NCBI GenBank assembly: GCA_977020255.1
Contig: CDROCS010004962.1
Span: 62,001-126,000, forward strand
Source of the DNA: Obrimoposthia wandeli
Lineage: Eukaryota
Reading direction: 5' to 3'
Length of the DNA stretch: 64,000 nt
Below are positions 1 through 51,400 of this stretch, piece after piece (positions within the stretch are counted from its first letter, which is position 1; every line of letters starts with the position of its first letter). Below the pieces are notes generated by a model. It was not told where the DNA came from. It did no database searches and saw only the letters and a program-made list of their open reading frames with translations. The translations under genes and the position numbers were made by a program.

Positions 1-3000
1 CATTAATCAAGAATCAAGAATGTCAATTTTCAATAACGTCGATTTGGATAAAGAAATGGAGGTTCAACTATATGGTGATCTCTCTCCAGTACAGCTGCAA
101 ACGCCACCACCGGCGCAGAACATTGACTTACTTTAGTCAAGACTCGACGGTGGTGAGCGAATGAGACGAAGGAGAAGCAGCAGCAAGAGCCGAGCTGTTG
201 CTAGAAGAACCGCCATTGGCCAGCTCAACTCCTAGAGAAGAACTAATGAGCGTGAGAGGTGGGGTACAGAGATCCCAATATATCTACGACTAAGATTGAG
301 ACCCGGACCTACGTAAAGTATGGGGCCTTTGAAAAATTGATTGCGTTCACATTAATAAATGTTTGATAATAATAAAATATAATAATAATAATAATAACAA
401 ATACAATACTGATATCCCAGTTGATGTAACAGATGAAGAAACTTTTAAAAATCCTTTTGTAGATGTAATTTATAGGAGCAAAAATGAGGGGACTCAGGTC
501 AACTTAATTTTTACTCAAACAATAATAAAAAATTTCACTATGCTGCAATTCCCAATCGTCTCAAATTTAGATAATGGAGCCTTCCCGGTTAGGATAAGGT
601 GTAAGTGGTATCATAGATGTTTGCATGGATTCCGATCCGAGCTCTCTTACAGCAAACATCTGACATTATGTTCACTGAATCCTGATGACAATACGCTATA
701 CAGCAGGTCTAAGGATAAGGATTTAAAATTCAGGGATTGGGCAAAATGCAAAATGCAATTTTAGCATTGTACGACCAGTATGAGAGTATTCACCTACCGG
801 CTTCGGCAAAACTACTATTCTTAGTCCCCAATATTACACAGTATCATAAATTTTCCGGTCCAAATTGTATTTTAGATTTTATGTTAAAATAAGAAGAATT
901 AGGAACAACAATTGTCAAACCGTGTTATGATCTTAATGCTCATCAAGCAATGATCATGACAGGCATAGACTGGGTTAATTTTAATTCTTGTAGATTATGT
1001 TATTTGTGTGGAACCCAGTCTAAGTTAGTCAGAGATCACAATCATGTTATGGGGCGATACCTGGGAGCCGCGTGCAACCTCTGTAACCTTGGTCGTCGTC
1101 TCCCTAAAAAACCACGAATTCCCATCGTGTTTCATAACCTCAAAGGATATGATTTGCATCATATACTTAAATATGCGTTGGGTACATTAAACTCTTGGGA
1201 AATTTCATGTATACCTCAAACTTCAGAGAAATATTTATCTTTAACTGCATATACTGAATTCTGTAGTTTGAGATTCATAGATTCTCTGCAGTTTTTGAGC
1301 GGGTCTTTAAAAAATTAAACGGCATCTTTAAATGCATGGCCAATCACACAGTCAGTGTTCTCAGCTTCGGTTAACGATATGGGTATTTTTCCGTATAAAT
1401 TTGCAAAAACCTTTGCAGATTTAGAAAATACTACAGAAATCCCACCCATAACTGAATTTGAGGGTGTAAGTCTTCAAGACTATAATGAGGCCCGTACATT
1501 TTGGGCGAATAATTGTCGAAATCTTCTAGAATATATGCTTTATTATATGAAGTTAGACATTTATCTTTTAGCTGATGTGTTTGAGTCCTTTCCTGTAAAA
1601 TCTTTAGCAGAAGATGGGCTAGATCCCATGCATTTCTTTAGTTTACCTGGTCTTTCATGGGCAACAGCATTAAACTCTTAAAATTAATATAGAGTTACTG
1701 CAAGATCCCGCGATGTATCAAATGTATGATTATGCGCGGTGGAATGACTTTTGTCAACAAACATCATCTTGTCAAAAATCAATCCACGGAGATTCTGTAC
1801 ATCGACATCAATAATTTGTATGGGTGGGCGCTTACTCAACCTCTACCTCATGCCAACTTTAAGTGGGTTTATGATGAGGAAGAGTTGAATAAGTTGATGA
1901 CAGATTTGGCTACTGTTGATACAGTTTCATCAGACATCGGCTATTTGGTTGAGGTTGACTTAACAATCCCTTCCAATGTGCATGATAAATTAGATGATCT
2001 CCCAGTAGCACCTGTTCATCAATGCCCACCTAATTCAAAGGTTAAGCAATTATTGTTAACCCATGAAGACAAGTTGAATTATGTTGTGCATTGGCGGATT
2101 CTTCAATTCTACTTAAAGTTTGGAGCGAAAGTTATCCGAATTCATCGTGCTATAAGCTTCAGTCAAAACTTTGTGTTTAAAGACTATATTGAGAAGAATT
2201 CTAGAAAACGTAATTTGGCCACTAGCAAATTTTATCGGGATTTTTACAAGTTAAAAAGTAATAGTCTCTTTGGAAAAACTGTAGAGGACTTGCGGAAACG
2301 TATTTATCTACGGTTTTGCAATGATGAGCGTAAACTAATAACATATACTAGCAAGTACAACTTCAAGCGTAGTTTTACAATTGCAGATGATTTGGTAGCA
2401 GTGTTATTAGGAAAACAGAGTATTTGTCTCGATCGACCGAGTTATATAGGTCAAACGGTTTTAGACATTTCTAAACTCAGAATGTACGAGCTTCAATACA
2501 TAGAATTAGAGAAATATCGAAGAGAATTTAATTGTGAGATTAAAATCGCAGCTGGGGACACTGACTCTTTCTTTTTAGAATGTAGGAATGTTAGTTTAGA
2601 TAATCAATTATTACCGGCAATGTTTAGGGACAACTTATTAGATACCCAAAAATATCCCGCTAACCATTCTCTACATTCTATGAGTTTAAAGGATATTATC
2701 GGGAAATTTAAGGATGAAAGCGAGGGACAGGTTTCGTATGACGATTGTATTTTCCTACGCCCTAAATGCTACAGTTTACATGCATCTAATAATACATGTT
2801 CAATGAGAGCAAAGGGTGTGGGAAGAAACAATCTTGTTGGGAATATTTTATAGCTGTTTATTTTGGAAAAATAAAAAAATATATATATATAAAAAATTTA
2901 AAAAAAAATAAAAATAAGAATTAATTAATTAAAGAATTAATTAAGAACTTTCCTTAATTAGGGAAAATTTCTATTTAGAAAATATGCATTTTGGCATTTT

Positions 3001-3016
3001 AGTTTAGAGTGGTCAA

Positions 3017-3066
3017 TCTCCGACGGGTAAAAAGCCCGTTTCGCCCTGCCGGGCTCATCAGGGAGA
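3017..3066 (-). ncRNA. Type I hammerhead ribozyme
   Basis: Minus strand: UCUCC CUGAUGA GCCC ggca GGGC GAA ACGGG cuuuuua CCCGU C GGAGA. All core nucleotides are present, stems I/II/III pair perfectly (5/4/5 bp), and the cleavage triplet is GUC (cut between 3022 and 3021). Confidence 0.92.
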
Positions 3067-3070
3067 TGGC

Positions 3071-3118
3071 TTGTTATCTCTAACTTCGCGGTGGATTCCG
3101 CGAAGCCAGAGATAACAA
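3071..3118. other. Stem-loop immediately 5' of the hammerhead (minus strand)
   Basis: TTGTTATCTCT/AGAGATAACAA plus CTTCGCGG/CCGCGAAG arms, 6-nt loop; a shortened version sits next to the 32.1 kb copy. Confidence 0.75.
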
Positions 3119-3551
3119 TAATAAAAAGCCAGGGAAAAGAGGGAAAAATTCCCCCTTTCATGTGCCGACGAATATCGTCGACATGTGATGTTGGTGTGCG
3201 CAAGTACACATTTCAACACACACACACTCACACAGCAGACATCACTCAACTCACTCACTCTCACTACTCACTCAATCGCTCACTCAATCCCTTGTTCACT
3301 CACTCTCCCTACTCACTCACTCACCTATCCATTGTGCACATGTGTGTGTGTTTAATTTGAAATTTTCCGCCTGCCCAGAGTTCGACAGGCGGTGAAATTT
3401 CCCGGCTGCACATGTGAGTGTGTGCAGAGCCGGGAAATATCGGTTCTTTTCCGATCCTGCCCTGTCTGTGTGTGCGAGATAAAGGGCAAAGCCACAGAAT
3501 CCCCTCTCTCTCACCTGCCCAATTCTGGAATTGCCGGTGTAATAAAATTGC

Positions 3552-3582
3552 TATAAATAGCAACAGTTTTTGGAATTTCAGT
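3552..3582 (+). promoter_or_regulatory. TATA box plus initiator of the LTR
   Basis: TATAAATA at 3552 followed by TCAGT with the A at 3580, 28 nt downstream (canonical spacing). Confidence 0.55.
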
Positions 3583-3685
3583 AAAACAAAAATCCAATCA
3601 CAGTTCAGTATCTGAAGAATTTACATTATTACTATAAATAGATAAATTAGAGGAGTTTCGTTTTGGTTGGCAGAAAATATATCGA

Positions 3686-4005
3686 CTGATTTACTTTTCA
3701 GACTATTTGGAAACAGTTTCAATTGATTTACTCAGACTATTTGGAAACAGCTTCAATTGATTTACTTTTCAGACTATTTGGAAACAGTTTCAATTGATTT
3801 ACTCAGACTATTTGGAAACAGCTTCAATTGATTTACTTTTCAGAAATATTCAGACTATTTGGAAACAGTTTCAATTGATTTACTCAGACTATTTGGCAAC
3901 AGCTTCAATTGATTTACTTTTCAGACTATTTGGAAACAGTTTCAATTGATTTACTCAGACTATTTGGAAACAGCTTCAATTGATTTACTCAGACTATTTG
4001 GAAAA
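3686..4005. repeat. Tandem array of mostly alternating 37- and 34-bp units inside the LTR
   Basis: AATTGATTTACTTTTCAGACTATTTGGAAACAGTTTC alternates with AATTGATTTACTCAGACTATTTGGAAACAGCTTC, about 9 units. Confidence 0.95.
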
Positions 4006-4499
4006 CAAATTAGAGAGAATTTTTGAATATATTATTATTGGAGACAATTTTCATTTTTCCCACCTAACAATCTTACACATGAGGCATACCGGAAAGTTTA
4101 TGATACTGGGTGTATTGAAAGCGTTGGGCAAACTAGATTTATTTCAAGAGCCCATCAACTGTATTCCCATAAATCAACCAAAATCGCTTTTGGGTAGAAA
4201 AGAACGCTAGCCTGGCTTATGGACACTTCAGAATTTAAACAATTTTCATTTTTTGATTTTTTAGTTTAGTTTTTAAAATTTTAGATCCCTATGGCACCTT
4301 GACTCTAACTTTTTGTTATTTCAATATATTTTTTAGGTTGGGCCTTATCTTTGCTGACAGATCTCATTGTCATGTTGTTTTTAATAAATGTATTAAAAAA
4401 TATTCGTCTTATGTCTTTTATTATTTTACCCTTATATTTTTTAGGGATTTAAAAAAATAATTCAAAATAAAACATTAAAAATATTTATTTTTATAACAC

Positions 4500-4880
4500 A
4501 CTAATCGTTTTCCAACGATTACCATAAAATACATAAATGTCCACAGTTTCTCGTCGCAGGATCCTGATATTGTATCTTGTTGTAAAATACTCTTCTTCGT
4601 CCTTTTTGAATAGTTGAAACAAGTTTGTGAGGATAATACATTCCAAGTGGATCAAATACATGTATTTTCCACTCTTTAACATAAATAGCTATCCAATATT
4701 CTCCCAGTAAATTCGAAGTATGAGTATTGATAATGTAACCTTCAGATTGAAAAAATGGGATCATATCAATTGAATAAACTCCATTGAATTTATCTCCCAG
4801 GACCTTCTCTGCTGATTCTTGTACTTGTAATGAACTAAATAAAATTAATAAATATAAATTTTAAAAATGTCTTACTTCAA
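4500..4880 (-). pseudogene. Adenain-type (C5-like) cysteine protease of element A, spliced; catalytic His replaced by Tyr
   Basis: KFNGVYSID..P....GYIINT....GEYW (normally GEHW), FDPLG, QYQ....NCG.LC. Predicted 41-nt intron 4835-4875 (GTAAG..TTTAG) after a 5-nt first exon TTGAA. Confidence 0.85.
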
Positions 4881-4881
4881 T

Positions 4882-5450
4882 CTATAATATGACAGTTCTG
4901 TTTTTATTGATTTGTATTTCCGAATCAAACACTCCGTAAATAAGCACCGTAGTAGGATGTGTTAAAGCTGCATTGAACTTAATTTCTAGTCATAAATTTC
5001 CATCCTTTCATAGTTGGCATTGGTTTATATCAAAGTCTGGTGCCAAACAAATGTGAAGAACGGGCAGCTACTTTTAAACTCAGTGAAAGAAATACCATTG
5101 TTTATATTTTTATCTAGTTGGCCCAAATTCCGAATAATAGATTGCGTATAAGCCAAAGCATAAACGTTACCTTCCAAATCTGTTTTATATGTTTCGCGAT
5201 AATCAGTATTTCTTGAAAGTGTCACTGAACCTACATTAAGATTGTCAAATTGAGTTGCATCTGTCGTATAATTTCCTAGATACTTTGCAGTTTTTTGAAA
5301 AGAAATTAAAATGAATTTCGGTAATCTTACATCACCAAAAATTTGATCCTTATTAAAAGCTTGTGTATCCGTACCTAAAGAATAGAATATAAGTTTAGTT
5401 TCTCTAATAGGATAACAAGCATTGTTTTTTTCCATTCCTATATTACGATT
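4882..5450 (-). pseudogene. Major capsid protein (PY), C-terminal half, element A
   Basis: NACYPIR..K...SL, IFG..RLPKFILISF, F....VGSVTL, YTQS..RNLG....NNGISF..FK...FFTF, LIYGVFDSEIQI; aligns by eye with the element B MCP. The N-terminal half is missing at the RT junction. Confidence 0.9.
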
Positions 5451-5476
5451 TTAGCGATGTCGATTTAGATGGAAGG

Positions 5477-6784
5477 ATGCATATGTTGGCTACAAAAGGC
5501 TATGCGCCTTTTGCCTCCATTAAAGCCTCCAGGCAAAGGAAGAGAGTCAATGTTAATCAAGATGAGAAGCAACACATCGATGCATGCGTTCAAGCTCTTT
5601 TTCAGGCAGGTATCATTGAGAAATATACTAAAGGCCCCTTTTGCTCTCAAGTAAGAATGGTGCCCAAAGCCAACTCAGAATTACGGCGTCTTATAGTAGA
5701 TTTTAAACATCTAACGCCACATTTGCCTCAGCTGCATATGAAAATTCCGAATTTAGCCAACAGGCTCAAAAGTATCCCAGCTAATAGACTAGCAATTAGA
5801 ATTGACCTCAAGGGAGCTTTTTATCAAGTCAAGATACGTCAAGCTGCAAGACATCTGACAAATTTTTGGAATACCGAATGTTACTACCGTTTTACACGGT
5901 TGCCCATGGGTCTTCGCCAAAGCCCAGCAATCTTGCAATGGGCCATAACCAGAATCCTCGGACAATTGAAGACAAAGTGGCAAGTGGATTTAGCCCAAGT
6001 TCATATTGATGACATCTTGATCATCGCAATGCCCAATGCCAAAGTTTGGAATGAGATAAAGACTTTCTTCGAAGGATGGGGCCTCCAAATTAATTGGAAG
6101 AAGTCACAACTACAGCCAGTATCCAAGATCGAGTATTGCGGCATGTTTATTGACATACAACGCCAGGAGGTGAGTGTCAGTGACACCAAGTGGAACACCG
6201 CCAATGACATCATCGAAAAAGGTCAGTACTCAGATGACGCAATAGGTTTTTTAAATTACATAAGTTGTGTTTTACATTGGCCATATGTGGCAAACTATGT
6301 TAATCCGAGCCTCAGGAAACTATGCTACTACACATTAAAGAAGTATGCCTCTACTTGGAGTTGGAGAAACAAAAGCGGGCTCATCTGGGCCACGGATGTG
6401 ACCAAGACAACTATCGCAGTTACAAAGGCCAAACCGCTGGAAATCGCGCTCACAGCGAAACTAAAAGAAGAAAACATCTATCTTCAAGAGGCCAGAGCGG
6501 TGCTGATGGCTATGTGGAAGGCGAGTCGAGGAGATACAATTCTCTGCGACAATCTAGCCTTGGTTTGGAGCATCAGGAATAGGCGAATACCAGCGCAAGT
6601 GGAGCATTGGTGGACGCTTATCGCGGTGCAACTGCTCGCCGTTATCAAACAAATCACAGTACAATTCATCCGTACTCAGTATAATCCAGCTGACGCTCCA
6701 ACCAGATCTGCAGAGACCCAAGCCAAGAAGGAAGAAGATTGGGGAGTGTTACTATCTCTAACCATGCATCAAGCAATAACATGA
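5477..6784 (+). CDS. Reverse transcriptase-RNase H (DIRS/hepadnavirus-like), intact 435-aa ORF
   Basis: RT: VPK....RRLIVDF..L, IDLKGAFYQV, FTRLPMGLRQSP, VHIDDILI, GLQIN.KKS.L.P...IEYCG..ID. RNase H: WATDVT, LQEARAV, LCDNLA, YNPADAPTR. No gag, protease, integrase or tyrosine recombinase nearby. Confidence 0.92.
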   Translation: MHMLATKGYAPFASIKASRQRKRVNVNQDEKQHIDACVQALFQAGIIEKYTKGPFCSQVRMVPKANSELRRLIVDFKHLTPHLPQLHMKIPNLANRLKSIPANRLAIRIDLKGAFYQVKIRQAARHLTNFWNTECYYRFTRLPMGLRQSPAILQWAITRILGQLKTKWQVDLAQVHIDDILIIAMPNAKVWNEIKTFFEGWGLQINWKKSQLQPVSKIEYCGMFIDIQRQEVSVSDTKWNTANDIIEKGQYSDDAIGFLNYISCVLHWPYVANYVNPSLRKLCYYTLKKYASTWSWRNKSGLIWATDVTKTTIAVTKAKPLEIALTAKLKEENIYLQEARAVLMAMWKASRGDTILCDNLALVWSIRNRRIPAQVEHWWTLIAVQLLAVIKQITVQFIRTQYNPADAPTRSAETQAKKEEDWGVLLSLTMHQAIT

Positions 6785-6874
6785 TCCTTCTGTCCTTTTG
6801 TGTATAAAGTTTTTATGGCTTAAAATTTTTGTGTCTATGTCTCTGTCGCTTACTCAGTCACATCACTTCTAGCC

Positions 6875-7008
6875 TACCACCTTTGGGTTCCAGGCGTGAT
6901 GTGATTGGGTGGCATTTATTATATAAGCTGGCACAAAAATACAATCAGTGCCAGTCTTATATAATAAATGCCACCCAATCACATCACGCCTGGAACCCGA
7001 AGGTGGTA
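6875..7008. repeat. Near-perfect inverted repeat (60-bp stem, 13-nt loop)
   Basis: Arm 6875-6934 is the reverse complement of 6948-7008 apart from one bulged T and one T/G pair; loop AAAAATACAATCA. Confidence 0.97.
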
Positions 7009-7234: not shown

Positions 7235-7243
7235 TTGTTTATA
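7235..7243 (-). promoter_or_regulatory. TATAAACAA motif
   Basis: 26 nt upstream of the ATG at 7208; overlaps the TAA of the upstream small ORF. Confidence 0.65.
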
Positions 7244-7383: not shown

Positions 7384-8030
7384 TTATCTTTTATAATTGT
7401 TCTCTATTTGTTTATAAACAGTTACTCCCTTAGAATTAAATATGTCGGTTAAAACACGTAAATCATCTGGGCAAGCTTGTGTAAAGTCAATAAATATATA
7501 CCCATGTGCTTGTTTAGCAGCATCATGGAATGAATCAACTAGAAAGTTCTTATTTTGAGGAAATGCCTGTCTGGCCACGAAATCTACAACTGTTTGATGT
7601 CTAGGATTTTTAAATAAAACTAAGTAATGTACATTAAGATTTCTAGTTCTATGGTGACCTCCTTGGTGAAATAGATTTTGAGTGATAAATATAACTGTTA
7701 TTTCACGATGTCTTGCAATCTTTGTAAATAAATTATTAAAGTCCGATTCCTTGTTAGCCTCCTCATACAAATCATCAATTATTATTACATCTTCTTTTTT
7801 CAATCTTTCACACCAATTTGCATCAAATCCTTCAATAAATTGTATTCCCTTCAACTTGCAAACTTCTGTTTTGGTTAATCCGCTTTCCGCTCCTCCACCA
7901 TGATGCAATAAATATTTTTGAAACTAGATTTGAAAATAGATTCATTTTTCAACAATTTACATACGAAATGTGTCTTTCCACTTCCACTGGGACCAACTAT
8001 TTGAAATACAGCATTATTATTTAGCTCCAT
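7384..8030 (-). pseudogene. A32/FtsK-like packaging ATPase (one frameshift near 7910)
   Basis: Walker A VGPSGSGKT (upstream of the tracked ORF, other frame), Walker B IIIDDL, LFTKIARH..ITVIFITQN, RNLNVHYLVLFKNPR. Confidence 0.93.
7408..7416 (-). promoter_or_regulatory. TATAAACAA motif
   Basis: Inside the ATPase 3' end, 31 nt upstream of the ATG at 7376. Confidence 0.55.
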
Positions 8031-8055
8031 TGCATATACTCTTTCATTTTTAATA

Positions 8056-8064
8056 TTGTTTATA
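8056..8064 (-). promoter_or_regulatory. TATAAACAA motif
   Basis: 25 nt upstream of the ATPase ATG at 8030. Confidence 0.65.
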
Positions 8065-8364: not shown

Positions 8365-8373
8365 TTGTTTATA
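8365..8373 (-). promoter_or_regulatory. TATAAACAA motif
   Basis: Overlaps the stop codon of TBP-like A; 24 nt upstream of the ATG at 8340. Confidence 0.65.
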
Positions 8374-8871
8374 GAAAAGATAACAAGATGTAATAAGATA
8401 TATTTTCTAAAATCAAATCAACAATGTCTGGATAATCAAAATTTTTCAATCCCAATATCATAACTTTACTACTGGAAAATATATTTACACATAGCGGTTT
8501 AAACTTCAAATAACTGAGATCAGGAAAAATTTCTGGTTCAAACATGCATTCTTCTTTCATTTTCTCTGCAGTTTTAAAAAGATTTATCTGTTTCCCGAGA
8601 TTGGCCGAAATTGTGATAGATTCTATTTCAGTGATTCGAATTCCAAATGGTAAATTGAACCCAAGCATTGGTATTTTGCATCCCATAACACGACAATTTC
8701 CTAAAAGAATTCAATATGAAAATAAAATTAAAAAAACTAACCTTTAGGAAAAATAACCACTGTGAAATTGTCAAATATTTCCACATATTGTGTCGGCTTC
8801 CATTCCTTGAATGGTAAGTACGAAACATCATCTTCTGTTCTACCTTTATAATTTATATTTACGAGTTTCAT
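8369..8871 (-). CDS. TATA-binding-protein-like factor, copy A (153 aa after splicing)
   Basis: Exon 1 8871-8742 (MKLVNINYKG...VVIFPKG), 41-nt GT-AG intron 8741-8701, exon 2 8700-8369 (NCRVMGCK...MFEPEIFPDL...CVNIFSSSKVMILG). The total of 462 nt is an intact frame. Matches TBP repeats LIF.SGK...TG and YEPELFPGL...LIFVSGKVVLTG. Confidence 0.85.
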
Positions 8872-9120
8872 TAGGCTAAAATTGTATTCTGTAAAATGTT
8901 CTTTATATATGTCTGAACCTGCTTTTTTATTGCACGTTTCTTGTAATTATCTTGCAAACCTATTATAATTGGATGATATATTTCTTCCAATCAAATTTGA
9001 TTTTTAATATGGATTTAATCCAATCAAATTCAATGCTTTAGTTATATTAACCAATGAGATTCATGTCTTTGTTAGAAATTAGTATAAAAGAATGCGCCAT
9101 TGGAGGACAAATCACAGTAA
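8872..9120. promoter_or_regulatory. Bidirectional host-type promoter (CCAAT cluster plus two TATA boxes)
   Basis: TATATAAAG on minus (8901-8909), TATAAAAG on plus (9083-9090), four CCAAT boxes 8968-9055; CCAATGAGA and CCAATCA recur in element B at 14765-14785. Confidence 0.6.
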
Positions 9121-9603
9121 ATGCATTCATATCAAAGACAATTATCAACGATGGAGGATAGCCAACGGATATTAAGCGGTGACGAATATTCGGAAATGTT
9201 TGAAGAATCGGATAAGGATATGTATGAAGAAATGAAACAATATTTCAAATACAAATTCAGATTCTTGAAGAAGGCTCAACTGATTGCTTTAGTAAATCCT
9301 GTGACAATTGAAAGAAGAAAGTTCAGCTACTATCTATCAAATATTCAAAAACCAGATTTTCAATATCTTAAACAGAAAGTTGAAAAGGCAGTTCCGAATT
9401 TTACTTTCAATAAGAACAAATTTTATATCCGAGGACCCGATGAAGCATTTCTAGATAACTATGGAAAATATGTTGATATTGATGCATTTCCGAAAAAGAA
9501 GCAATGGACTGTAACAATTCGGCTTTATGGTTACAAGAAAGATGAAATGGGAACAAAGTTGCATATGTGGAAAGTTGAACGTGCTCATAATTCTATGTTT
9601 TAA
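9121..9603 (+). CDS. Conserved hypothetical protein U1, copy A
   Basis: Intact 160-aa ORF; shares YF.Y...FLK, F.Y..S.I...D and FPK.K.W...I...G.K.D..G.....W....H with 14840-15349. Confidence 0.8.
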   Translation: MHSYQRQLSTMEDSQRILSGDEYSEMFEESDKDMYEEMKQYFKYKFRFLKKAQLIALVNPVTIERRKFSYYLSNIQKPDFQYLKQKVEKAVPNFTFNKNKFYIRGPDEAFLDNYGKYVDIDAFPKKKQWTVTIRLYGYKKDEMGTKLHMWKVERAHNSMF

Positions 9604-10379: not shown

Positions 10380-10652
10380 ATAGGGGGAACCCCCCGCCCC
10401 TCCCTCCTATTTGATGCTTTTTCCCCTACACATACACAAAATTTCACTCCACACACATGCACGAATTTTCACTCCACACACATGCACGGTTTTAAGGGAC
10501 AGTGGTACCCCCGGGGGTAGAAAATTTCACTTCACACACATACACGAATTTTCACTCCACACACATGCACGAATTTTCACTCCACACACATGCACGGTTT
10601 TAAAGGACAGGGGGAGTGGGGGTGTGGATTAGACCGGACACATCCACCTACT
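10380..10652. repeat. Right terminal region of element A: 24-bp CGAATTTTCACTCCACACACATGCA repeats, CCCC-GGGG palindrome, short terminal hairpin
   Basis: About 5 copies of the 24-mer, GGTACCCCCGGGGG at about 10504-10517, GTGGAT/ATCCAC hairpin just inside the CTACT end. Confidence 0.8.
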
Positions 10653-10800
10653 CATATCCACCAGGTTTTAGCGTCGGTATTTTATCCATAGGAAACACTC
10701 CTTTGAATTTATGTTTTAATAATTCCATTCCCGCAGTATTAAGCTGTTTAGAACTACATTAATTATTATTATTATTAAGATCAATAAACACTTACTTCAT
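10653..10800 (-). pseudogene. 5' part of the element B protease, truncated by element A
   Basis: ATGAA, 42-nt intron 10795-10754, then (MN)SKQLNTAGMELLKHKFKGVFPMDKIPTLKPGGY, ending at the AGTAG terminus of A. Confidence 0.8.
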
Positions 10801-12055
10801 CCAACAATTGCACGTTTGTCTTTAGTTACTTGAATTTCAGTATCGAAAACACCGTTAATTATAATATTTGATGGATGTTCCAATCCTTCGAGAAACATTA
10901 CGTCAAGTCTTAGATTACCTTGTCTCGGTAATTGATGTTGATTTATATCAAAGTCGGGAGCCAATAAGAATGTAAAAAATGGGTAATGTTCCTTAAAATC
11001 TTCAGATGTTATACCTATGTTTATATTCTTATCCAATAATCCCATGTTTCTAACCAGTGATTGAATACACGCAAACATGTATTCATCTTTTTCAAAGTTT
11101 GTAGTGTACGTTTCAACAAAATCAGTGTTTCTACTAAGGGAAATTTAAAAAAAAAACATTACAATGATCAAATTCTGAAGTGTCTGTTTCACTAGACCCG
11201 TCCATTTTAAGATTATGTTGAAATGTAACCAAAACAAATTTAGGTAATTGCTCATCATCAAAAATAGGTGATTTATAAAATGTTGTAGAGCCTTTAGGTA
11301 GTGAATAATGTACCACCTTTCCCCGTCTATATGGATAAACCGCATTTTGAGTTTCCAAACCAACATTATGAGCCATCAAAACTGATGGTTCAACTCGTAC
11401 ACGTCTAACTTTCATTTTAGCATTCAAAAATTTTATTCTACAATGAGTTGTACCTGTTTTTAGTGATATGTTTGCTTTTGGAAATAATCAATTTTATACC
11501 GACATTCTTACCGGGGAGCAAATATTTGGGTTGTTCAAGGAAATCCGATCAAATTGAACCGCACAACTCAAATTCACTCGATTTTTCAATCCACCCTTTT
11601 CGTTCATTCTGATTACTATCATAACCAATTCCATCTAAAGAAACACTTTTCGTATCTTTGCTATAATTAAGCATACATTCAATCAAAGCCTTGTGAGCAT
11701 AATTACCATTTCCTCCTTCAATACGAGTATTATTCAGGTGAATTTGCACATCTTTAAATAGTGTATGGAAAAAGAAATTTGTTGGTATAAATTTATCTGC
11801 TTCCACCATGTCAATATAACTGTTTGTTCCATTATTTTTTAAAACTTTAATTTTCAAATATAATAGAGAATCGTTCAAATCTAAATATTCTGTTTCACTC
11901 GAATGGATATTAAACTCGATTGTATTAATATTACTACCGTTAATATTATTAACCGGGTAAATATTCTCAAAACATTTATTTTCTATAGCAATTTGAGGTA
12001 GTGGACAATCAAATAAACACAGTTCAGATTTTTGCACATGCCACTTCTTACTCAA
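10797..12055 (-). pseudogene. Major capsid protein (PY), element B, frameshifted
   Basis: KSELCLF..P.PQ..IE, IEF.I......YLDL....LY.K.KV, NY.HKA.IE..LNY, VRRVRVEPSV..AH..GL....A.YP, LAPDFD, G.LRLD..F, GVFDTEIQV. Confidence 0.93.
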
Positions 12056-12431
12056 ATATGGTTACTATATTACTACGTTTGTTTATACTACCACTACCTT
12101 TCTGTACTTCTTCTTTCATTTTAACAGGAATTTGTGCTGGTCGTTTTTGACTTTTCTTTATTGCAGTCATTAGTTGAGTAGCAGCTTTTGTTGCTTCAGG
12201 CAACAAACCTGGTACTTCACTCATTGCATTTGATTTTAGTTCACTCAAATTTGGTTTATCGTTCATTACTACATTTGTAAGTGTTTTTGCTCCAATTCGT
12301 CCTAAATGTGATAGTGTAGGAAACGCAATTCTCCCCAAAACTTTCAACTAACCTGAACCATATTGTTTTCCAACAAAGTAAGGTAGTTCACCACCCGTTT
12401 GGGTTGTACTATACACATCAAATAGACACAT
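12048..12431 (-). pseudogene. Putative core/virion protein precursor with Gly-Gly protease sites (one premature TAG)
   Basis: MCLFDVYSTTQTGGELPYFVGKQYGSG*LKVLGRIAFP...; the Q.GG.LP.F.G.QYG.G pattern is typical of Polinton core-like ORFs. Confidence 0.7.
12079..12087 (-). promoter_or_regulatory. TATAAACAA motif
   Basis: Inside core-gene codons (S-I-N-K), 23 nt upstream of the MCP-B start at 12055. Confidence 0.65.
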
Positions 12432-12456
12432 TATTAACGATTAACATTGTATAATT

Positions 12457-12465
12457 TTGTTTATA
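12457..12465 (-). promoter_or_regulatory. TATAAACAA motif
   Basis: 25 nt upstream of the core-gene ATG at 12431. Confidence 0.65.
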
Positions 12466-13413
12466 CATAACCTTTCAGAAATTTAGTGTTAAACTAGTTT
12501 TTGCGTTATGAGCAAAGTTTATCGGTATTCCACTATCATTACGAATATTTACTTCAATATTGGAAATAGATGTTGATATTACAGGAAGATACATATGGTC
12601 TAATGATTGTAATATTTGCGATATCACCATTTTTTTGTTTTTATCTAATCAAATTGTTTTTAACAATGGTATTTTTACACCACCAACATTTATAGACTCT
12701 ATCAAATTGGTATACAGGTACTTGTGATCAAACTCACATATTAATTGTGGAATGCCTTTACCGTCACCTGTAAATTCTGTTTTATTAAGACCCAGTACAA
12801 ATGCCATAAGATTATTAAACAGTATGCTTGAAATATTAGATTTTAACTTGAACTTAATGAATTTATCTTTTTCAATGTAAAACATACTAAAAATATGATT
12901 ACATTTAGATATAACGTATTTAACTAATGCATTCAAATCTGTACTATTGAAAACGTTGTCAAACACGATTTTTGAATTGATATCTTTCTTTCCTAATTGA
13001 TAATATTCGAATTTTGTTGATACATATTTATGATGTATGGTTTTTTGAGCAGTTAAAATACAATTATCATCAGATGCTAAGTAATTTTCATGGTTTAATT
13101 CATTATTTAGGAAACCCAATTGATTTTTCAATTTTTTCGATAGTTTTATATAGAATTTCTGTTTATTTAAAGATTTTAAAACAAGTACATTTTCCTTTTT
13201 ATCTTTGCCATATGTACCAAACTCACAATAAAGATTAGCAATGCGTTTTGATGATTTTATTTCTACTTTTGAAATTTTCTTTATATTAAATTTAACAGGT
13301 TTATGCTTATCATTATGAATTTCCCCATCTTTAAATTCAACATTTAATGAGACAGTATCGGTTTTCTTAGCACTTACCGTTTCCTTATAATTTATTTCAC
13401 TACCCTTGTCCAC
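12461..13413 (-). pseudogene. Minor capsid protein (penton, PX), N-terminus apparently deleted
   Basis: C-terminal signature YLYTNLIESINVGGVKIPLLKT, then PY......I..IEVNIR...G.PI.F......TL.F after a stop. Confidence 0.8.
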
Positions 13414-14197
13414 ATAGTAGAAATACTACTTCAATATGATTATTCAAACATACTACACATTCAGGTTCATTTAACATGTATGAAAGTATATTTAAGTATT
13501 GTTTTTCAGGGTCTTTTTCTAAATTATATAAATCACAAATCATTTCAAATAATGAATTGTATTCTCCATATTGCATCATTTTATATTTTAAAACAGATTT
13601 TATTCTCTCTCTCGTGAAAAACCTTTTCAAGTATCTGATGTTGTTGGTATCCATCAACATGTCGAATTTTTCCGTAGTTAAAGGATATTCACTTATACAA
13701 TCTGATTCGTTTTTCTCAATAACATTAGCATCATTATAGGGTCCTAAACCTTTTGAATAACATATATCAGGTAATTTTACAACAATATCTGATATATATA
13801 CTTTTCCAATCAATGGTGATGTATCAAAATCAATTTTCTTGACCATAGTTTCAATTATTGGTACATTTGAAACATTTAACTTTAAAATAAATGGACATGT
13901 AAGAAAAAATTTCATATGTTGCTTCATTGGTTTAAGATACCATTCCCATTCGGATATTGCACCTTGACAGTATATACATTTTACTTTATCAGTTGAATCA
14001 TCATCATGTTTATAAAATCCAGCTTTAGCTAAATTATATACAGATTGTTTCCCTTTAAAATTTATAATTAACAATCTTAATCTTTCACTTTCACGTCTAT
14101 ATTTCCCGTGTAAAACTTTCATTCTAGAATAATCTACTTTTCGTCTAACTAAAACATCATCAACAGTTTTATAATGAAGTATATAATCAACAAGCAT
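13400..14197 (-). CDS. Inhibitor-of-apoptosis-like protein: one BIR domain plus truncated RING
   Basis: E.ERL...LAKAGFY...VKCIYC...EWE...PM.QH......CPF (CCHC zinc ligands intact); C-terminal ECVVC...VVFLLCGQ stops mid-RING. Likely start is the ATG at 14197. Confidence 0.88.
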   Translation of the reverse strand: MLVDYILHYKTVDDVLVRRKVDYSRMKVLHGKYRRESERLRLLIINFKGKQSVYNLAKAGFYKHDDDSTDKVKCIYCQGAISEWEWYLKPMKQHMKFFLTCPFILKLNVSNVPIIETMVKKIDFDTSPLIGKVYISDIVVKLPDICYSKGLGPYNDANVIEKNESDCISEYPLTTEKFDMLMDTNNIRYLKRFFTRERIKSVLKYKMMQYGEYNSLFEMICDLYNLEKDPEKQYLNILSYMLNEPECVVCLNNHIEVVFLLCGQG

Positions 14198-14222
14198 TTT
14201 TAAAAAATCAAAAAACATATAT

Positions 14223-14231
14223 TTGTTTATA
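14223..14231 (-). promoter_or_regulatory. TATAAACAA motif
   Basis: Overlaps the TBP-like B stop; 25 nt upstream of the ATG at 14197. Confidence 0.65.
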
Positions 14232-14545
14232 AGAAACTATCAAGAAAAAATACAATAGACTCGACTTGACAATGATAATCAAAATCTTTAATACCAAGAA
14301 TAATCACTTTTCCACTAGCAAACACATTAACACAGAGGATTATATTTTAAAATTCTGAGTGCTGGAAACAATTCTGGTTCAAACATACAATTTCTTCCCA
14401 TTTTCATAGATATCTTATACAAATTAACCTTCTTGTTGATATTCACTAGGATACTTAGAGATTGAATACGTTCAATTTCTATATTTTGAGCATCTTTGAT
14501 TGGTTGTTTGCAATCCATAATTCTACATGAACCTAAATAGTAGTA

Positions 14546-14587
<42 letters not shown>

Positions 14588-14715
14588 GTTGGAAATATAA
14601 CTATAGTATAATCCTTTAACTTTTCAACATATTGTATAGGTTTCTTTGATCGAAAAGGTAAGTGACTAACACTTCCCTTAAATTTACCTTTATAATTTAT
14701 ATTGATTATTTTCAT
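14227..14715 (-). pseudogene. TBP-like factor, copy B (spliced; 2-nt deletion near 14330)
   Basis: MKIININYKG...VIFPT, 53-nt intron 14585-14533 at the same phase-1 position as copy A, SCRIMDCK...CMFEPELFPAL...PLC, then (V)NVFASGKVIILG in a shifted frame. Confidence 0.85.
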
Positions 14716-14839
14716 TATGTGATAATAATTGATGATGTCACAAACATATATAGTTTCATATTATCCAATGAGAATCAACCAATCATATTCAAGTAGTCAA
14801 CTATAACTACCGAAACATTTCAGTTTACTCTCATTCATT

Positions 14840-15349
14840 ATGTTCAATTTACAAAAATCGATTTTGAAGAGCACAAAAAAGAGGAATAATGAAATTTTAA
14901 ATACAAGCAAAGTTGTACAGATAGATTCTGATGATACAGAATTAGAGGATATTTTTAATAGAGAAACAGAAGACCTATTCAAAGAATATGTACCTTATTT
15001 CAGCTATACAATGAATTTTCTCAAGATGCCTGTTACCTTTAGATTAAAATACCCTGTTATGCTAACAAAGTCCAAGTTTGACTATTTCATCTCAAGGATC
15101 CATCAAAATGATATTAACAATATCAATGTTATTTTCAGAAGAATGAAATTAGATAACAAAATTGAAAACTTTAGTGCTTTTATTAAAGCTGATGAACATC
15201 TGTTTAAAGGAATATATACTTACTCTGAAGAAGAATTTCCCAAAAGCAAATATTGGATTTTATTTATTCAAATTCAAGGATTCAAAGTCGATAGACTCGG
15301 GAGACAGAAGCCTATTTGGAGAATTACTGAAGGACATAAGAAAGTTTAA
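14840..15349 (+). CDS. Conserved hypothetical protein U1, copy B
   Basis: Intact 169-aa ORF homologous by eye to 9121-9603, in the same head-to-head position with the TBP-like gene. Confidence 0.8.
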   Translation: MFNLQKSILKSTKKRNNEILNTSKVVQIDSDDTELEDIFNRETEDLFKEYVPYFSYTMNFLKMPVTFRLKYPVMLTKSKFDYFISRIHQNDINNINVIFRRMKLDNKIENFSAFIKADEHLFKGIYTYSEEEFPKSKYWILFIQIQGFKVDRLGRQKPIWRITEGHKKV

Positions 15350-15594
15350 TGTAATCATATGAATAAATTATTTATTGATTTTATTTATCATATGAATAAA
15401 TTATTTTATTAATCTTTAACTAGAAACAAAAGTAATATAAATATAATCTTTGCCAAAGGTGTTGCCCGGTCTTCGGATGAAGGGCTTCCCTCTTAGGAGG
15501 CTCCGTAAGGGAGATTTTGGCCACTTAAAATCTACTTTTGTTTTAAACGGCGAGATATTTAGCGCCATATTTGAAAATAGGTCTTAAAATCACG

Positions 15595-16075
15595 CATACA
15601 ACGCCAAAAAAGGTTTTGCAGTAAAACGTACCCCACCTATTGCCTTGAGTTAGTATGCGCGATTTTCAGACCAAATGTAGGCCAAGTCTCGAAATCCTAC
15701 ATACGAACTCAAATTGATTTTGCAGTAAAAAGGTACCCCCCCTCCGGGGGGACCTATTACCATTGAGTTAGTATGCACGATTTCAAGGCTTTTTGGTCAA
15801 GTCCGGAAATCACACATACGAACTCAAATAGATTTTGCAGTAAAAGGTACCCCCCGGGAGGACCTATTACCGTTGGTTTAGTATGCGTGATTTTCAGACC
15901 AAATTTAGGTCAAGTCTCGAAATCCTGCATACAACGCCAATATGGTTTTGCAGTAAAAAGTACCCGGCCCCGGGGGGGACCTATTACCATTGGTTTAGTA
16001 TGCGTGATTTCGAGACATTTTGATCAAGTCCAGAAATCACACATACGAACTCAAATAGATTTTGCAGTAAAAACG
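15595..16075. repeat. Subterminal array of about 104-115-bp units with central C-run/G-run palindromes
   Basis: TTTTGCAGTAAAA recurs at 15614, 15718, 15833, 15946 and 16060; two alternating subtypes; GTACCCC..GGGGGACC cores. Confidence 0.9.
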
Positions 16076-16199
16076 TAGAAATTTGAGTCATTTTGAGTCA
16101 TTTTAAGCCAATTTAAACAAATTTTAGACATTTTAATGACATTCTGTCTAAAAAATAACAGTATACAGAATCAATAAATGATTTTTCATTATCATTCAA

Positions 16200-17624: not shown

Positions 17625-19383
17625 TGTTAGATTTAGGAATTGAAAAATTAAAAGAATTAGTTAAATTTATACTAAAATGAAAATCCTTGAAAGCAAGGTT
17701 GAAAATTAAATATTAAAATCGAGTTAAAATATTAGGACTAGAATTAGGGGTAAATATTAAGAGGACCACGAAGGTCGTGTGTAGTGTGTTGTATATATAG
17801 GTTAATTAGAAAATATTAAAGTGCAAAATAAGCAAAAAAGCAAAAAGAGACAAATAAGAAAATCGAAGAAAAAGAAAAGTTAATTGCTGAATCGACGTCA
17901 GCAGAAGAAGAAAAGAGTAAGCGCATTTTTGGGTGCAGAGTTAATTAACTCCGTCACAGGTAGAAAACCCGGAAACCAGCTGTCGATCAAGTGATCGACA
18001 ATCACAAGTCCCAGTCGCGGGAAAGCCAGAGCTCAGCAAGCAGCTGCAAATCAAGTGCTCCACAACCAACTATATAAGTCGACTAAAAACCCGCACAGAG
18101 AATCAACAGAGAAAGCCAGGACACACAGAGGTGAGTGCTTTGTTTAAGTGCTCAGAATTCAGAAAATAAAAGTATAAAAGGAAATTATCCTTTTGCGAAT
18201 TGCCAGAAAACGAAATAAACTAGAATAAAGAGAAAGCGAAATTGAACTCGTTGATTTAAGCCAAGCAGAAGGATCGAACAATACTACCAAAGGAAACTCC
18301 GGACAAACGATCAGGAGCGCTTGATTAAGCCGAGCAGAAGGATCAACCAATACTAGCGAGAGAATTTCTGGTCAAACGATCAGGAGCGCGGAAGGAGTTA
18401 ACTAGGAGACGAAACGCGGTTAGTCAGCAAGTCTTGTTTCCGTGGAGACCTTGCAGCACCAGTTCCCAGCAATTCTAAGCTCGGAGTTCGTCGGACATCG
18501 CAGAGACGCAGACTCGAATCGGCGGCATTCCTAATCATTGGTGAGATAGGAGATATAGCGGCGTCTGTTTATATATATTCGTATTTTGAAGTAGAAAGTT
18601 GAATAAATAACTGATTCGTATTTTGAAGTAGAAAGTTGAATAAATAACTGATTCGTATTTTGAAGTAAAAAGTTGAATAAATAACTGATTCGTATTTTGA
18701 AGTAGAAAGTTGAATAAATAACTGATTCGTATTTTGAAGTAAAAAGTTGAATAAATAACTGATTCGTATTTTGAAGTAGAAAGTTGATAAATAACTGATT
18801 TGTATAATCGTATTTTGAAGTAGAAGTTGATAAATAATTGATTTATATAATCGTATTTTGAAGTAGAAAGTTGATAAATAACTGATTTATATAATCGTAT
18901 TTTGAAGTAGAAAGTTGATAAATAACTGAATTGTATAATCGTATTTTGAAGTATAAAATTTTGAAGAATTAGAGTTGATTCAAATCTATAAAGTCAAAGT
19001 TACCCTCATTTTTAAGAGTCCAGACTTTAGGGATCAACTAACCTTAACCTTAAAATCGATACGTGGTTCATCCCCACTTGTGTAGAGACTTACAGAAGTC
19101 TTAGGAATTCTTACCATACTTTTTAGAAGATACGTACATAAACGTATTGTTGTGTTATAGTTTAGTGTGTTACCAATAAACGATTTCCTACATTAGAAAA
19201 CGTTGTTTTAAACCTTTCAGATTAAGAGACGTCAAACAAACACCTTCAGATAAGAAATAGAGATAGGCAACCATAACCCTAAGTAGGCCACGACCAACTT
19301 TAAGACCTGCTTCTATTCGAACTCACGTTGGGGCCCTCCGCACAAAAGAGGATCTATACAAGTTTCATATAGAAACCCCAACA
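17625..19383 (+). mobile_element. Solo LTR (Gypsy-type), 1759 bp
   Basis: TGTTAG...CCAACA ends with 4-bp TSD ATAC (17621-17624 / 19384-19387); removal restores the transposase frame; TATATAA at 18071; internal ~68-bp duplication 18257-18390. Confidence 0.88.
18577..18955. repeat. 37-44-bp tandem array inside the solo LTR
   Basis: About 10 copies of CTGATTCGTATTTTGAAGTAGAAAGTTGAATAAATAA and longer variants. Confidence 0.95.
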
Positions 19384-48400: not shown

Positions 48401-51400
48401 GTGATTTATCAGACCACATTACTCCCTTCCTAAATATATTTGCCATGTTATAAAATTTTCACAACATTGTAAACAGAGTGCTTTGTGTTGAAAACTGAGC
48501 GGAATTCGTTGAAGTGGTTTGCATTTCTTGTATCCACAACATAGGACTCTTCTATAAGCTGTTCGTATTGAGTAAGGAAGTTGTTTACCTGGGTAATTGC
48601 TCCTTAACAATCGTCGAATGGATCCAAAACGAATTTTTCTTCTCATACATCATCAATATTCTGTTGTATCGCTCTGTTTCTTTATGTGGTCTACCGCTTT
48701 CAGGTTTTCTGTTGACATTGCCCCTCTGTTGATATTCTATCCCCCATTTTCAAACTGTATTTTGATCACATTCTATTTTTCCTGGACACCATCTTGATTG
48801 ACAATTCTGCTTCTAACATCCCAATTATTCTTCCCTTGTCAAATTCACTTAAAATCATGATGACTTGTACACTAAAAGTGAAAAAAAATCATAAGAAATT
48901 ACTAAAAGTTTACATCAATACATAAAAATTATAATAAGTAGAAAAATGATTGATAAACGACACCAGAGTATACAGTACATTGTGTTTTAAAGTGGGTGAC
49001 TTTTTTTGGCGGTGAGTATATAATAAAAAAACATATTTTGTAAATAAATAATTAGAACATATTTTATAAATAAAATATAAGTAATTTTACTTTTAAAACA
49101 GATAAAAATGCTCATAAAATCCACTCCAACTGCTGAACCCATTTGGATAATACTCTAAATTCTAGTATACATATATATTAATTATTTACGATGTTTTCAA
49201 TGTTTTCAATAACTTCATAAAATGTCTGTCGAAATTGAGCATTACTCAAAAACTACCACATTACATAATAGTAGATTATCTTAATTATGTTAGTTATGAA
49301 TTACTTGGTTTATTTCATTTTGATTCTTTATAATCAGTATTTCAGTATTCAAAGAAATATCAAAATTAGCAACAAAAAACGTATTTTTATGTTGAAGATT
49401 TTCAAGTCATTCATAAAAGAAATATGATTTTTTTTAAATCAAAAAATTGTGGAAGACAATTATAAAAATAATACAAATCTATCAATATAATTCAGTATCC
49501 AAATACCGTTTATTTAATTTGCTATATCCAAATTTTCGATATTGTATTTCCTCTCCTAATACCGAGATACTTGTAATATTTGTATTGTATCGTGAAACAT
49601 ATCACTTTCAAATATAAAAAATATATTTAATAATTTTACTCAGCATATATAACATAAGACTTACTCGATAGTATCTTCTGATTTGTGCTTATCTGGCAGA
49701 TCACGACTCCGTTCAGCCAGGTCGTCCTTAAGTTTCCCCAGCAATTCTGTACACTGGATCTGCTCCAGAAGAGACTCTTGTTCCCGAATTTTCTGTTGCT
49801 GCTTCTCGATCAACTCCTGTTGTGCTGCATGCCGACTCGCATACGTGTTGACGGGCTGAATAAACAACGAAATCATCAATATGTGTCCATTACAATCTTT
49901 AGCATTTTTTTATAGTACACTGTGTTTTTTGTAAATGTTGCTGATAGCAGGGAGGAATTTGGCCATTTTAAAAAGTGATAAAATCGTGACAAGTTTTATA
50001 AAATATCAATTAATTTTTAATAGAAATGAATAGTAAACAATTAACATTAAAATAAAATCGATTCTTTAATTGTGAACTATTTTTTATCGAATGTAGGACA
50101 TTTCGGACACACGTTTTGGACTGGACGTTTCAGACTGACTTTTTTTAAAAGTAGTACGTTTCGGACACTCCAAATTTTTGGTAGAAATTGATATTTTTTC
50201 TAATAGTTTTTTGTTGAGTCAATTTATAAAAAATTATTAGTTTTCAGTTTGATAGAAAATGGTGTTCTTTCTATAGGTTATTTTGGGTCAATTTATAAGA
50301 AATAGTTAGTTTTCAGAAAATATTACTTTTCTTTTTTATAAGAAATAAGAAATACTTTTATTTAAAAGAAAAATCATAAAATATCAAAGTTCAATTGCTT
50401 ATTTATTAACAACATTTACAGCAATTCAATCAAACAAACTTATCCAAAAACTAACTATTTCTTCAAAATTTAACAAAATAAAATTATTAGAAAAAACACC
50501 ATTTTCTACCAAAAAATCTGGAAAGTCCGATAGGTCCTACTTTTAAAAAATACCATTTCGAAACGTCCGTGCACCATTTTTTCATTTGAGATATTTCTAA
50601 ATTTTCATTGTTTGTTAGATTTGAATAGTCAAATACTTGATTATTTTTTAAATTTTTTAGAAGTAAAAAGGGTAAACCTCTGTTTCATAAACTTATCAGT
50701 ATTTATAGAATTAATGAACAACGAATTGACAATTCTGTCACATCGTTTTCCATATAGAAACAAAGAAACGGAAATACACAGATACATATATAGCATTGGG
50801 TTTCACAGGCATTACCGTTAGTGATGTGGAAAGTTGGTGAAAACTAAGCAGACCCAACCATCTCACTAAAAATTTAACATGTACAAAAATATATTTTGAT
50901 TTTGTATAATAAACATTTTTCGAGGAATCCTTTATATCAATGGAAGCCATAAAATTGTGATTGTAGGGTAAATATTTTAAATTTTATAATAAATAAGAGA
51001 GGAAATTAATATATGAATATCACAAAAGAGTAAAAGGTATGTTTATGTCAATCGTCTGAGGACCACAGAGGATCATAGCCGGTCGAAATTAAAATGACCA
51101 TTTTAGTGACGGAACAAGACAATTTCTTTGTTAAAAAAAACAATAGTAATAAAATACGAGGGTTGATAAAACCTTCCGTCCATCATGTAAAGTAAAAACT
51201 AACATACCTTGGGATGCTTGAGAGATTTAATATCTTCTGCTGAAGGTCGAGTTGGAGGATGACCGAGCAGTTTCTCTATTGGCATATACACATGCTGCTT
51301 GGATACCTAAAAGGAAACAGTATAAATAAGTTTAAACTGCCTTGCATATAAGGGTAATTCCATTTCAGAGCTAAATAATTTAATATTTTCCAAGTATAAT

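Follow-up and report, generated by a model that had tools for sequence, protein, structure and literature searches.

What would a virus-like transposon do with a gene for a TBP-like protein, and which promoters would such a protein read? The question is raised by a 64-kb window (the whole stretch of DNA analysed here, from Obrimoposthia wandeli), which is a mosaic of a Polinton/adintovirus, element A, and a truncated second one, element B, with the same layout of TBP and SSB genes in both. At stake are the status of animal Polintons as true viruses and the timing of capsid production in elements without their own RNA polymerase. An earlier note, made from the sequence alone, had proposed that element A carries an intact TBP-like gene interrupted by a very short intron.

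The TBP-like gene of element A runs from 8871 to 8369 on the minus strand and, after removal of the intron, has 153 codons and no internal stop. Exon 1 (8742..8871, 130 nt) starts with the ATG at 8871 and encodes strands S1-S4 of the N lobe. Exon 2 (8369..8700, 332 nt) encodes S5 of the N lobe and the whole C lobe with its E-P-E stirrup, and ends with the TAA at 8369. The predicted intron between them (8701..8741, minus strand, 41 nt, phase 1, GTTAGT...TTTTAG) is 85% AT, and an unspliced reading meets a stop codon immediately past the donor. Only two of the GT..AG pairs spaced 25-120 nt apart leave the frame open, and the 8741/8701 pair gives the full-length product. Residues 2-48 of an intronless metagenome homologue align to 8880-8740 and residues 48-148 to 8701-8399, with no gap across the junction. 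Because this homologue aligns up to both edges of the insert, the insert is exactly the non-coding part. The frame check and the gapless alignment bear out the 41-nt intron and the intact 153-aa product of the earlier note, and the size is plausible because an intron of a host TBP gene has 47 nt.

The insert is 34-41 nt long in 29 of 30 A copies (the remaining one is truncated), and exon 1 has 130 nt in 23 of them. In the 30 B copies its length ranges from 26 to 236 nt, and the shortest inserts may no longer be spliceable. Among the pattern-matched copies, drawn from 59 A and 30 B copies examined, GT..AG ends are retained in 42/46 and 26/29, respectively. An intron interrupts the identical codon in families A and B, in two further types from the same genome (L085; L087/L090) and in one metagenome locus (L133). 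Intronless versions occur at 8/20 own-genome and 45/57 metagenome loci, while 3 and 11, respectively, were uncallable. GT..AG ends, a homologous frame restored by removal, and a position common to several families are hallmarks of a spliceosomal intron, and we infer from them that the 41-nt insert is spliced. Contigs from four sequencing runs of one sample behave as genomic DNA, and among the joints listed for them none falls at 8701/8741, a result without bearing on splicing. Programmed frameshifting was considered and rejected, since the insert lengths land in different frames and contain stops.

The TBP assignment was confirmed for exon 2, which matches the Pfam TBP family at E 7e-9 (35.8 bits, cut-off 22.9) and 35 solved TBP sequences in the PDB, with archaeal ones ranked first; exon 1 alone has no Pfam match. 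At a threshold of E<=0.01, PF00352 was recovered by 60 of 61 alignment rows, the exception being either exon 1 by itself or a single short row. For the structure we modelled a natural intronless paralogue, P0164 (144 aa), to which the window exons are 50-51% identical. The model (pLDDT 97.6) has strands at residues 2-11, 26-30, 35-39, 43-49 and 62-75, a helix at 82-86, strands at 91-124 and a helix at 130-143. Over its full length of 144 residues it aligns to human TBP 164-336 (Z 14.0, rmsd 2.3), and the next unrelated fold reaches Z 6.7. Foldseek retrieved only TBPs from the PDB, and 22 viral TBP-like models from BFVD, both at E<=0.001. The model thus points to a two-lobed TBP saddle, as the structure prediction foreseen in the earlier note should have given. 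The two-repeat fold proposed there is present, but its first repeat cannot be called intact by usual standards. Up to residue 81 the model contains no helix, so that both N-lobe helices, H1 and H2, are absent, and the S5-S1' linker has 19 residues versus 32 in two canonical TBPs. The protein hence lacks the canonical arrangement of two helices per lobe with a basic patch on the N-lobe H2.

The C-lobe stirrup carries both acidic residues in 92 of the 93 proteins in which it could be located (102 examined), and in the alignment rows E94 is kept in 56/59 and E96 in 58/59. The phenylalanines F39 (53/53), F98 (59/59) and F114 (59/59) are also kept. The N-lobe stirrup position (23, mapped by eye) is not aromatic, which leaves three of the four kinking phenylalanines. 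With the N-lobe register taken from the start of the structural alignment (profile-profile alignment with canonical TBPs placed this lobe wrongly and was set aside), N6 (47/48), R45 (52/53), M47 (59/59), S69 (58/59) and N112 (59/59) replace Val, Val, Thr, Asn and Leu of the host TBP. We take these five positions to face the DNA. The N lobe of TBP meets the 3' half of the TATA box, and the 3' half is where the box of the TBP-bearing family, described below, differs.

TBP and TFIIB form a textbook DNA-dependent pair. As described in excerpts of PMC7221094, two C-lobe loop glutamates bind TFIIB, TFIIA, Mot1, TAF1, Brf1 and Brf2 all dock on the basic patch of the N-lobe H2, and giant-virus TBPs mostly lose the TFIIB-binding acids and come with their own TFIIB. 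None of 66 ORFs of metagenome elements matched TFIIB. The whole genome holds 12 TFIIB-family matches versus thousands of TBP copies, which argues against an element-encoded TFIIB there as well; the host TFIIB gene is in exon pieces. Brf/TFIIB-like host genes are expanded on one contig (C1245, L218-L228), where a Polinton copy of a second class lies between two of them. We judged this coincidental, as other copies are without such neighbours.

Element A is arranged as a polB on the plus strand, followed on the minus strand by protease, the 3' part of the capsid gene, a core-like ORF, ATPase, a 100-codon ORF and TBP, and finally by SSB on the plus strand and the right terminal inverted repeat (TIR). 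The protein-primed polB (435..4226) is spread over several frames and holds a 1.2-kb insertion (about 2835-4066), which contains 71-bp tandem repeats. The protease and the 3' part of the major capsid gene (4522..5459) are both broken, and the A32-like packaging ATPase (7384..8045) is frameshifted near 7908. Reading frames and homology alignments therefore agree with the earlier note that polB, ATPase, capsid and protease of A are broken. The ORF that follows the TBP gene starts at the ATG at 8339. SSB (9121..9603), head-to-head with TBP, is a predicted early gene, and its structure model suggests a T7 gp2.5-like OB-fold (pLDDT 85.8; a middling Z of 7.7 to 1je5, rmsd 3.3, 110 residues aligned). 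Its four best structural matches, at Z 6.8-7.7, are proteins of T7 gp2.5 type and of ASFV. In the ESM Atlas, nothing above 0.84 was found for SSB, and the TBP query returned generic TBP clusters only. The TBP and SSB genes are adjacent in many elements.

The right TIR (10546..10652, plus strand) ends in ...CCTACT, and the sequence flanking it varies among copies. TIRs of the family start with AGT. The window copy keeps the right end only; its left end was not found in the 8 kb upstream of the window, so that a nesting of A inside B is at most tentative. Another family-A copy (L179/L180) has both TIRs with CATACC on each side, i.e. a 6-bp target duplication. A retroelement with RT/RNase H (5411-7008; Pfam RVT_1 E 3e-18, weak DNA_pol_viral_C) ends in a 53-bp perfect hairpin (6875-7008). 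It takes the place of about 3.2 kb of A, comprising integrase, penton-like, pX-like and 5' capsid sequence. The Polinton core set of pPolB, retroviral-type integrase, A32 ATPase and adenain was found in the window and other copies together, as the integrase of the window copy is deleted. Pfam supports polB, integrase, ATPase and protease (in relatives: rve, Pox_A32, Peptidase_C5 and DNA_pol_B_2). The labels penton, pX, pVII and capsid are our presumptions from size and gene order. The putative capsid ORF (420 aa) has no Pfam match, and its profile weakly matches the DJR-annotated capsid of the second Polinton class.

In element B, exon 1 (14586..14718), a 53-nt intron with an ATT microsatellite (14533..14585) and exon 2 (14227..14532) lie on the minus strand, and the intron interrupts the same codon in the same phase as in A. 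The homologue that the earlier note placed at 14227-14715 is real, although its ATG is at 14718 and its frame is shifted near 14330-14337. An SSB homologue (14807..15349, plus strand) again stands head-to-head with TBP. The virion-gene arm of B (10654..14236, minus strand) comprises a protease fragment, capsid, pX-like and penton-like genes and, at 13400-14236, a BIR/RING inhibitor-of-apoptosis (IAP) gene (Pfam BIR E 1e-11) preceded by a box of the late type described below. Family D (L087) additionally encodes a dual-specificity phosphatase. Sub-terminal 113-bp repeats (15574-16077) mark the end of B; elsewhere the window contains a 37/44-bp tandem array (18540-18970) and a 450-bp imperfect palindrome (50123-50568).

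The TBP and SSB genes have promoters of an ordinary, early type. The TATA box of the A TBP gene (TATATAAAG, 8901..8909, minus strand) was read from the sequence, as was the box of the SSB gene (TATAAAAG, 9083-9090, plus strand). The latter lies within a region with several CCAAT/ATTGG boxes that is predicted to serve both genes as a two-way promoter (8960..9090). A TATAWA motif occurs at most 70 nt upstream of the TBP gene in 19 of 31 callable metagenome loci (shuffled sequences: mean 8.7, none of 500 as high), mostly 35-49 nt 5' of the ATG and often together with CCAAT and an initiator-like motif. TATAAAC was found upstream of the TBP gene in none of the 31 loci. Several of the 12 promoters without TATAWA bear TTTGTTTTACTT. 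In six loci (L122, L127, L129, L131, L132, L134) it replaces the TATA box at the same distance and is followed by an AATCAT initiator-like motif. The SSB genes of five loci (L091, L098, L103, L107, L112) have an apparent GT..AG intron of their own just 5' of the conserved domain, and introns may be typical of early genes.

The virion genes are preceded by a different box. On the minus strand of A, TATAAAC lies at 8367..8373, where it overlaps with the stop codon of the TBP gene and precedes the ATG at 8339 by about 33 nt; at 8058..8064, 5' of the packaging ATPase; at 7410..7416, in the last ATPase codons and 5' of a small ORF; at 7237..7243, 5' of the basic core-like ORF (labelled pVII); and twice at 5023..5106, within the capsid gene and upstream of the protease. 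In B, boxes are found at 14231, 12465, 12087 and 11025, the first of which (14231-14225) overlaps the TBP stop codon and lies 5' of the IAP gene. The stop codons of both TBP genes are therefore inside a TATAAAC box, 33-34 nt ahead of the next ATG. The virion arms of 19 elements, several of them close relatives (20 were tried, one without such an arm), add up to 76.8 kb and hold 82 copies of TATAAAC on the coding strand versus 4 on the opposite strand. The controls gave 23/30 for TATAAAT, 22/24 for TATAAAA and 11/5 for TATAAAG, and the polB regions contain TATAAAC 3/0 times in 25 kb. In 12 less redundant arms, ATAAACA (78 versus 22 expected) and TATAAAC (54 versus 15) are the top two among all 7-mers, and 49 of the 54 TATAAAC sites are followed by A. 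A TATAAAC lies 20-110 nt before the next ATG in 40 of 52 cases (23 within 20-50 nt), where the share expected by chance is 13%. At the same spacing, TATAAAA has 0/15 and the other two control boxes 5/13 and 2/8. The remaining 12 of the 52 boxes are farther than 110 nt from a called ATG. By sequence pattern, TATAAAC is a TATA variant peculiar to the virion genes.

The second Polinton class, which shares this genome, offered a control; it has 131 polB matches, a PLA2-integrase fusion, Adeno_PX and a DJR capsid (L229-L250). No TBP match was found in it, the best being E 0.03 in three copies. Five second-class copies contain TATAAAC 1/5 times in 34.6 kb, versus 20/0 in 13.7 kb of TBP-bearing neighbours, although the TBP-less control is one family and hence one contrast. 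The most distant TBP-bearing elements (L136, L143) prefer (A/C/G)ATAAAC over TATAAAC. Distant members (L136, L138, L140, L143; P0107, P0139) have a longer N lobe with short helices maybe kept, and favour CATAAAC boxes; they possibly represent a series of stepwise N-lobe reduction.

The placement of capsid and packaging genes behind the TATAAACA box suggests a built-in early-to-late switch. We consider it likely that a viral TBP made early recognises the late box and brings in TFIIB and Pol II of the host, much as herpesvirus ORF24 acts on TATT. The TBP gene would be transcribed early by the host machinery from the CCAAT/TATA promoter that it has in common with SSB, and its transcript would be spliced in the nucleus. 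Because the predicted ten-stranded saddle, three of four phenylalanines and the acidic C-lobe stirrup are kept, the protein could bind a TATA-like box together with host TFIIB, and Pol II would be recruited. Since H1 and H2 are lost, host TFIIA, TAF1, Brf1 and Mot1 would not dock, a consequence drawn from the excerpts of PMC7221094, and the element TBP may escape Mot1/TFIID control. The DNA-facing strands, with their family-wide polar changes, would read (T/C)ATAAACA about 33-40 nt (up to 110) before each virion gene, and binding of TATAAACA by the element TBP would switch these genes on. A bolder version, to which we give a little better than even chances, is that widespread animal Polintons run an autonomous early-to-late cascade. 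In it, the smallest known two-lobed TBP, blind to TFIIA, TFIID, TFIIIB and Mot1, would on its own divert TFIIB and Pol II of the host to an orthogonal TATAAACA ahead of every virion gene.

The box could also be read by the host TBP as a weak TATA, with late timing set by post-replication copy number and the element TBP acting as a general booster of all element promoters. In favour of this, TATAAACA is one position off the consensus TATA, and the stirrup and three phenylalanines of the element protein are host-like. We take the position C(-25) of TATA variants to be the seventh base of the box. A host-type TBP was crystallised on a C(-25) variant, going by the title of PDB entry 1qn3, and C-G pairs in a TATA element are accommodated by Hoogsteen pairing (PMC4402545, in excerpt). 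A host TBP would, however, hardly account for the strict split in box type between TBP/SSB genes and virion genes, for DNA-facing strands changed family-wide, or for the missing box in the TBP-less class, and we regard this explanation as unlikely.

Still less probable is that the element TBP is a decoy or repressor, which sequesters host TFIIB or occupies host and early promoters while another element protein reads the box. The TFIIB stirrup is indeed its best conserved surface, the activator docking helices are gone, and the elements have ORFs of unassigned function, any of which could be the true box reader. The near-invariant polar residues on the DNA face nevertheless suggest sequence reading, and box and TBP co-occur in the single available contrast.

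TATAAA resembles a poly(A) variant, and in some genes, TBP among them, a box overlaps the stop codon. TATAAAC might then be a 3'-end (polyadenylation/termination) signal, or a by-product of Tyr-Lys or Ile-Asn codons, and TBP would act elsewhere, for example in replication at AT-rich ends with SSB, its neighbour in many elements. The positions of the boxes make this highly improbable. The 54 sites divide into 24 in one reading phase, 14 in a second one and 16 that are non-coding or at a stop; many of the 38 in coding sequence lie 40-110 nt ahead of the stop codon, and cleavage there would truncate the gene. Neither a 3'-end signal nor a codon by-product would explain the fixed spacing to the next ATG. 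Synonymous bias also speaks against a codon by-product, as it is found near gene ends only: Ile-Asn is written ATA-AAC in 28/41 cases within 130 nt of the stop and in 11/75 elsewhere.

A virus-like transposon carrying this gene is present in thousands of genomic copies: a 22-nt pattern over the A acceptor occurs at 5,363 places in the 1.35-Gb genome and a B pattern at 150, and the reversed controls at none. A HMMER scan found 334 proteins at E<=0.001, the best of which are 145-160-aa proteins whose match begins around residue 45, the place expected from the spliced form. A profile search found 249 public relatives at E<=1e-10, named by automatic TBP labels, and a word-index protein search with exon 2 found nothing. 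A core Polinton gene is present in 25 of 57 metagenome loci, rising to 18/24 with at least 3 kb and 8/10 with at least 5 kb of sequence. Scans of IMG/VR gave no TBP or capsid relative, but three distant ATPase contigs without TBP, with box counts of 5/3, 6/3 and 4/1 and no clear bias, and phage records gave no capsid match. In a C-lobe tree of 83 columns and 42 hand-picked rows (20 of 106 Polinton-type and 22 others, with named giant-virus TBPs left out), the Polinton-type rows fall on one side of a branch with support 100/98, and a quick 150-row tree agrees (SH-aLRT 92). The host has TBP paralogues of its own (L061-L070), two head-to-head on C238, an intron-rich one on C968 and an intronless divergent one in two places.

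Between lineages, the median dN/dS is 0.19 (23 non-independent pairs filtered from 43 ORFs), which indicates purifying selection on the TBP gene. The two TBP exons have pN/pS values of 0.74 and 0.65 among genomic copies anchored on a neighbouring gene, and the neighbours have values of 0.57-0.87. Relatives, gene context, separate clade and dN/dS together uphold the earlier note, which had seen a conserved element gene rather than a recent capture: TBP is a conserved gene of one Polinton/adintovirus lineage. The window copy, however, is a decaying fossil, and selection worked at the time of element replication. The TBP frame is fully open in 5 of 24 covered copies, and at the measured 2.4-2.6 disruptions per kb a 462-nt frame stays open by chance with a probability of about 0.3. 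Of the two explanations that had been offered for an open frame amid broken neighbours, short length therefore suffices, and continued selection is not supported, as 3 of the 8 private replacements of this copy affect columns that are 81-97% conserved across the family. Despite that open frame, domestication by the host or recent capture from it is barely credible, given these values and the rejection of a clade of the window copy with three host TBP rows (p-AU 0.0003).

A TBP in such an element is not entirely new. The earlier note had not recognised it as a standard Polinton gene, yet a TBP-like gene was labelled before in a MELD virus/polinton-like element with an adintovirus-like polB (Starrett et al. 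2021, PMC8502044, Fig. 5 legend). In the portion of that paper available, the label stands in the legend and concerns non-animal datasets, and no structure, promoter or function is discussed. The main texts of PMC8097293, PMC11161782, PMC11131425, 10.1101/2023.08.22.554363, 10.64898/2026.06.19.733378, 10.64898/2026.10.13.758929 and 10.64898/2025.12.11.693146 contain no mention of TATA (nor, where also searched, of TBP), and the term Polinton is absent from the available portions of four PMC7221094 supplements. No paper among the matches listed connects TATAAAC with Polintons, while Repbase notes, GenBank annotations, supplements and subscription papers may hold more. The earlier note had missed the reduction of the N lobe and the TATAAACA box that goes with the TBP. 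A dedicated TBP with a cognate late box would be a concrete mechanism, testable with one small protein and oligonucleotides (TATAAACA, TATAAAAG, TATATAAG). The saddle without N-lobe helices is also a natural deletion experiment on TBP, and the TATAAAC box a simple marker for small virion genes. If the cascade reading is true, it would count as direct evidence that a viral life cycle proceeds with no helper virus, and the more than 5,000 copies here would amount to tens of thousands of boxes across the host genome.

Compared with known systems, the elements are Polintons/Mavericks/adintoviruses by their pPolB, rve integrase, A32 ATPase, adenain, TIRs starting with AGT and 6-bp target duplication. 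Intact vertebrate Mavericks were reported as intronless (PMC8097293, in excerpt); here, in contrast, an intron lies within a conserved early gene of several families, so that introns occur in Polinton genes. The Polinton protein has the same two-lobed saddle as cellular TBPs (eukaryotic TBP/TRF, archaeal TBP; PF00352), with Z 13-14 across 144 residues, and like them it carries E-P-E, the phenylalanine of the C-lobe stirrup and the two of loop 5. It differs in being about 29 residues shorter, in lacking H1, H2 and the N-lobe stirrup phenylalanine, in several polar or changed DNA-facing positions, and in forming a separate clade. It is a member of PF00352, but not a canonical TBP. Nucleocytoviricota TBPs are likewise a viral TBP fold that lost the N-lobe regulatory signature. 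About 40% of them keep the stirrup acids and they have their own TFIIB (PMC7221094, in excerpt), whereas the acids are kept in nearly all Polinton proteins and no element TFIIB was found. Herpesvirus late TBP mimics (KSHV ORF24, EBV BcRF1, HCMV UL87) act on TATT boxes, and the likeness extends to host-type early promoters, a variant TATA on virion genes and a viral TBP fold with a more polar DNA face (PMC12529657, in excerpt). ORF24, as described in the same excerpt, is large, makes its own contact with Pol II, acts as part of a complex of six proteins and was modelled as incompatible with TFIIB. The Polinton TBP, in contrast, has 145-160 aa, is a bare TBP core with no extra domain, and hence none at the N terminus for binding Pol II, and retains the stirrup for TFIIB. 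By analogy, there is a good chance that it works like ORF24 without being a member of that family, which would add a third viral solution to those of herpesvirus ORF24 and of the TBP/TFIIB pairs in giant viruses.
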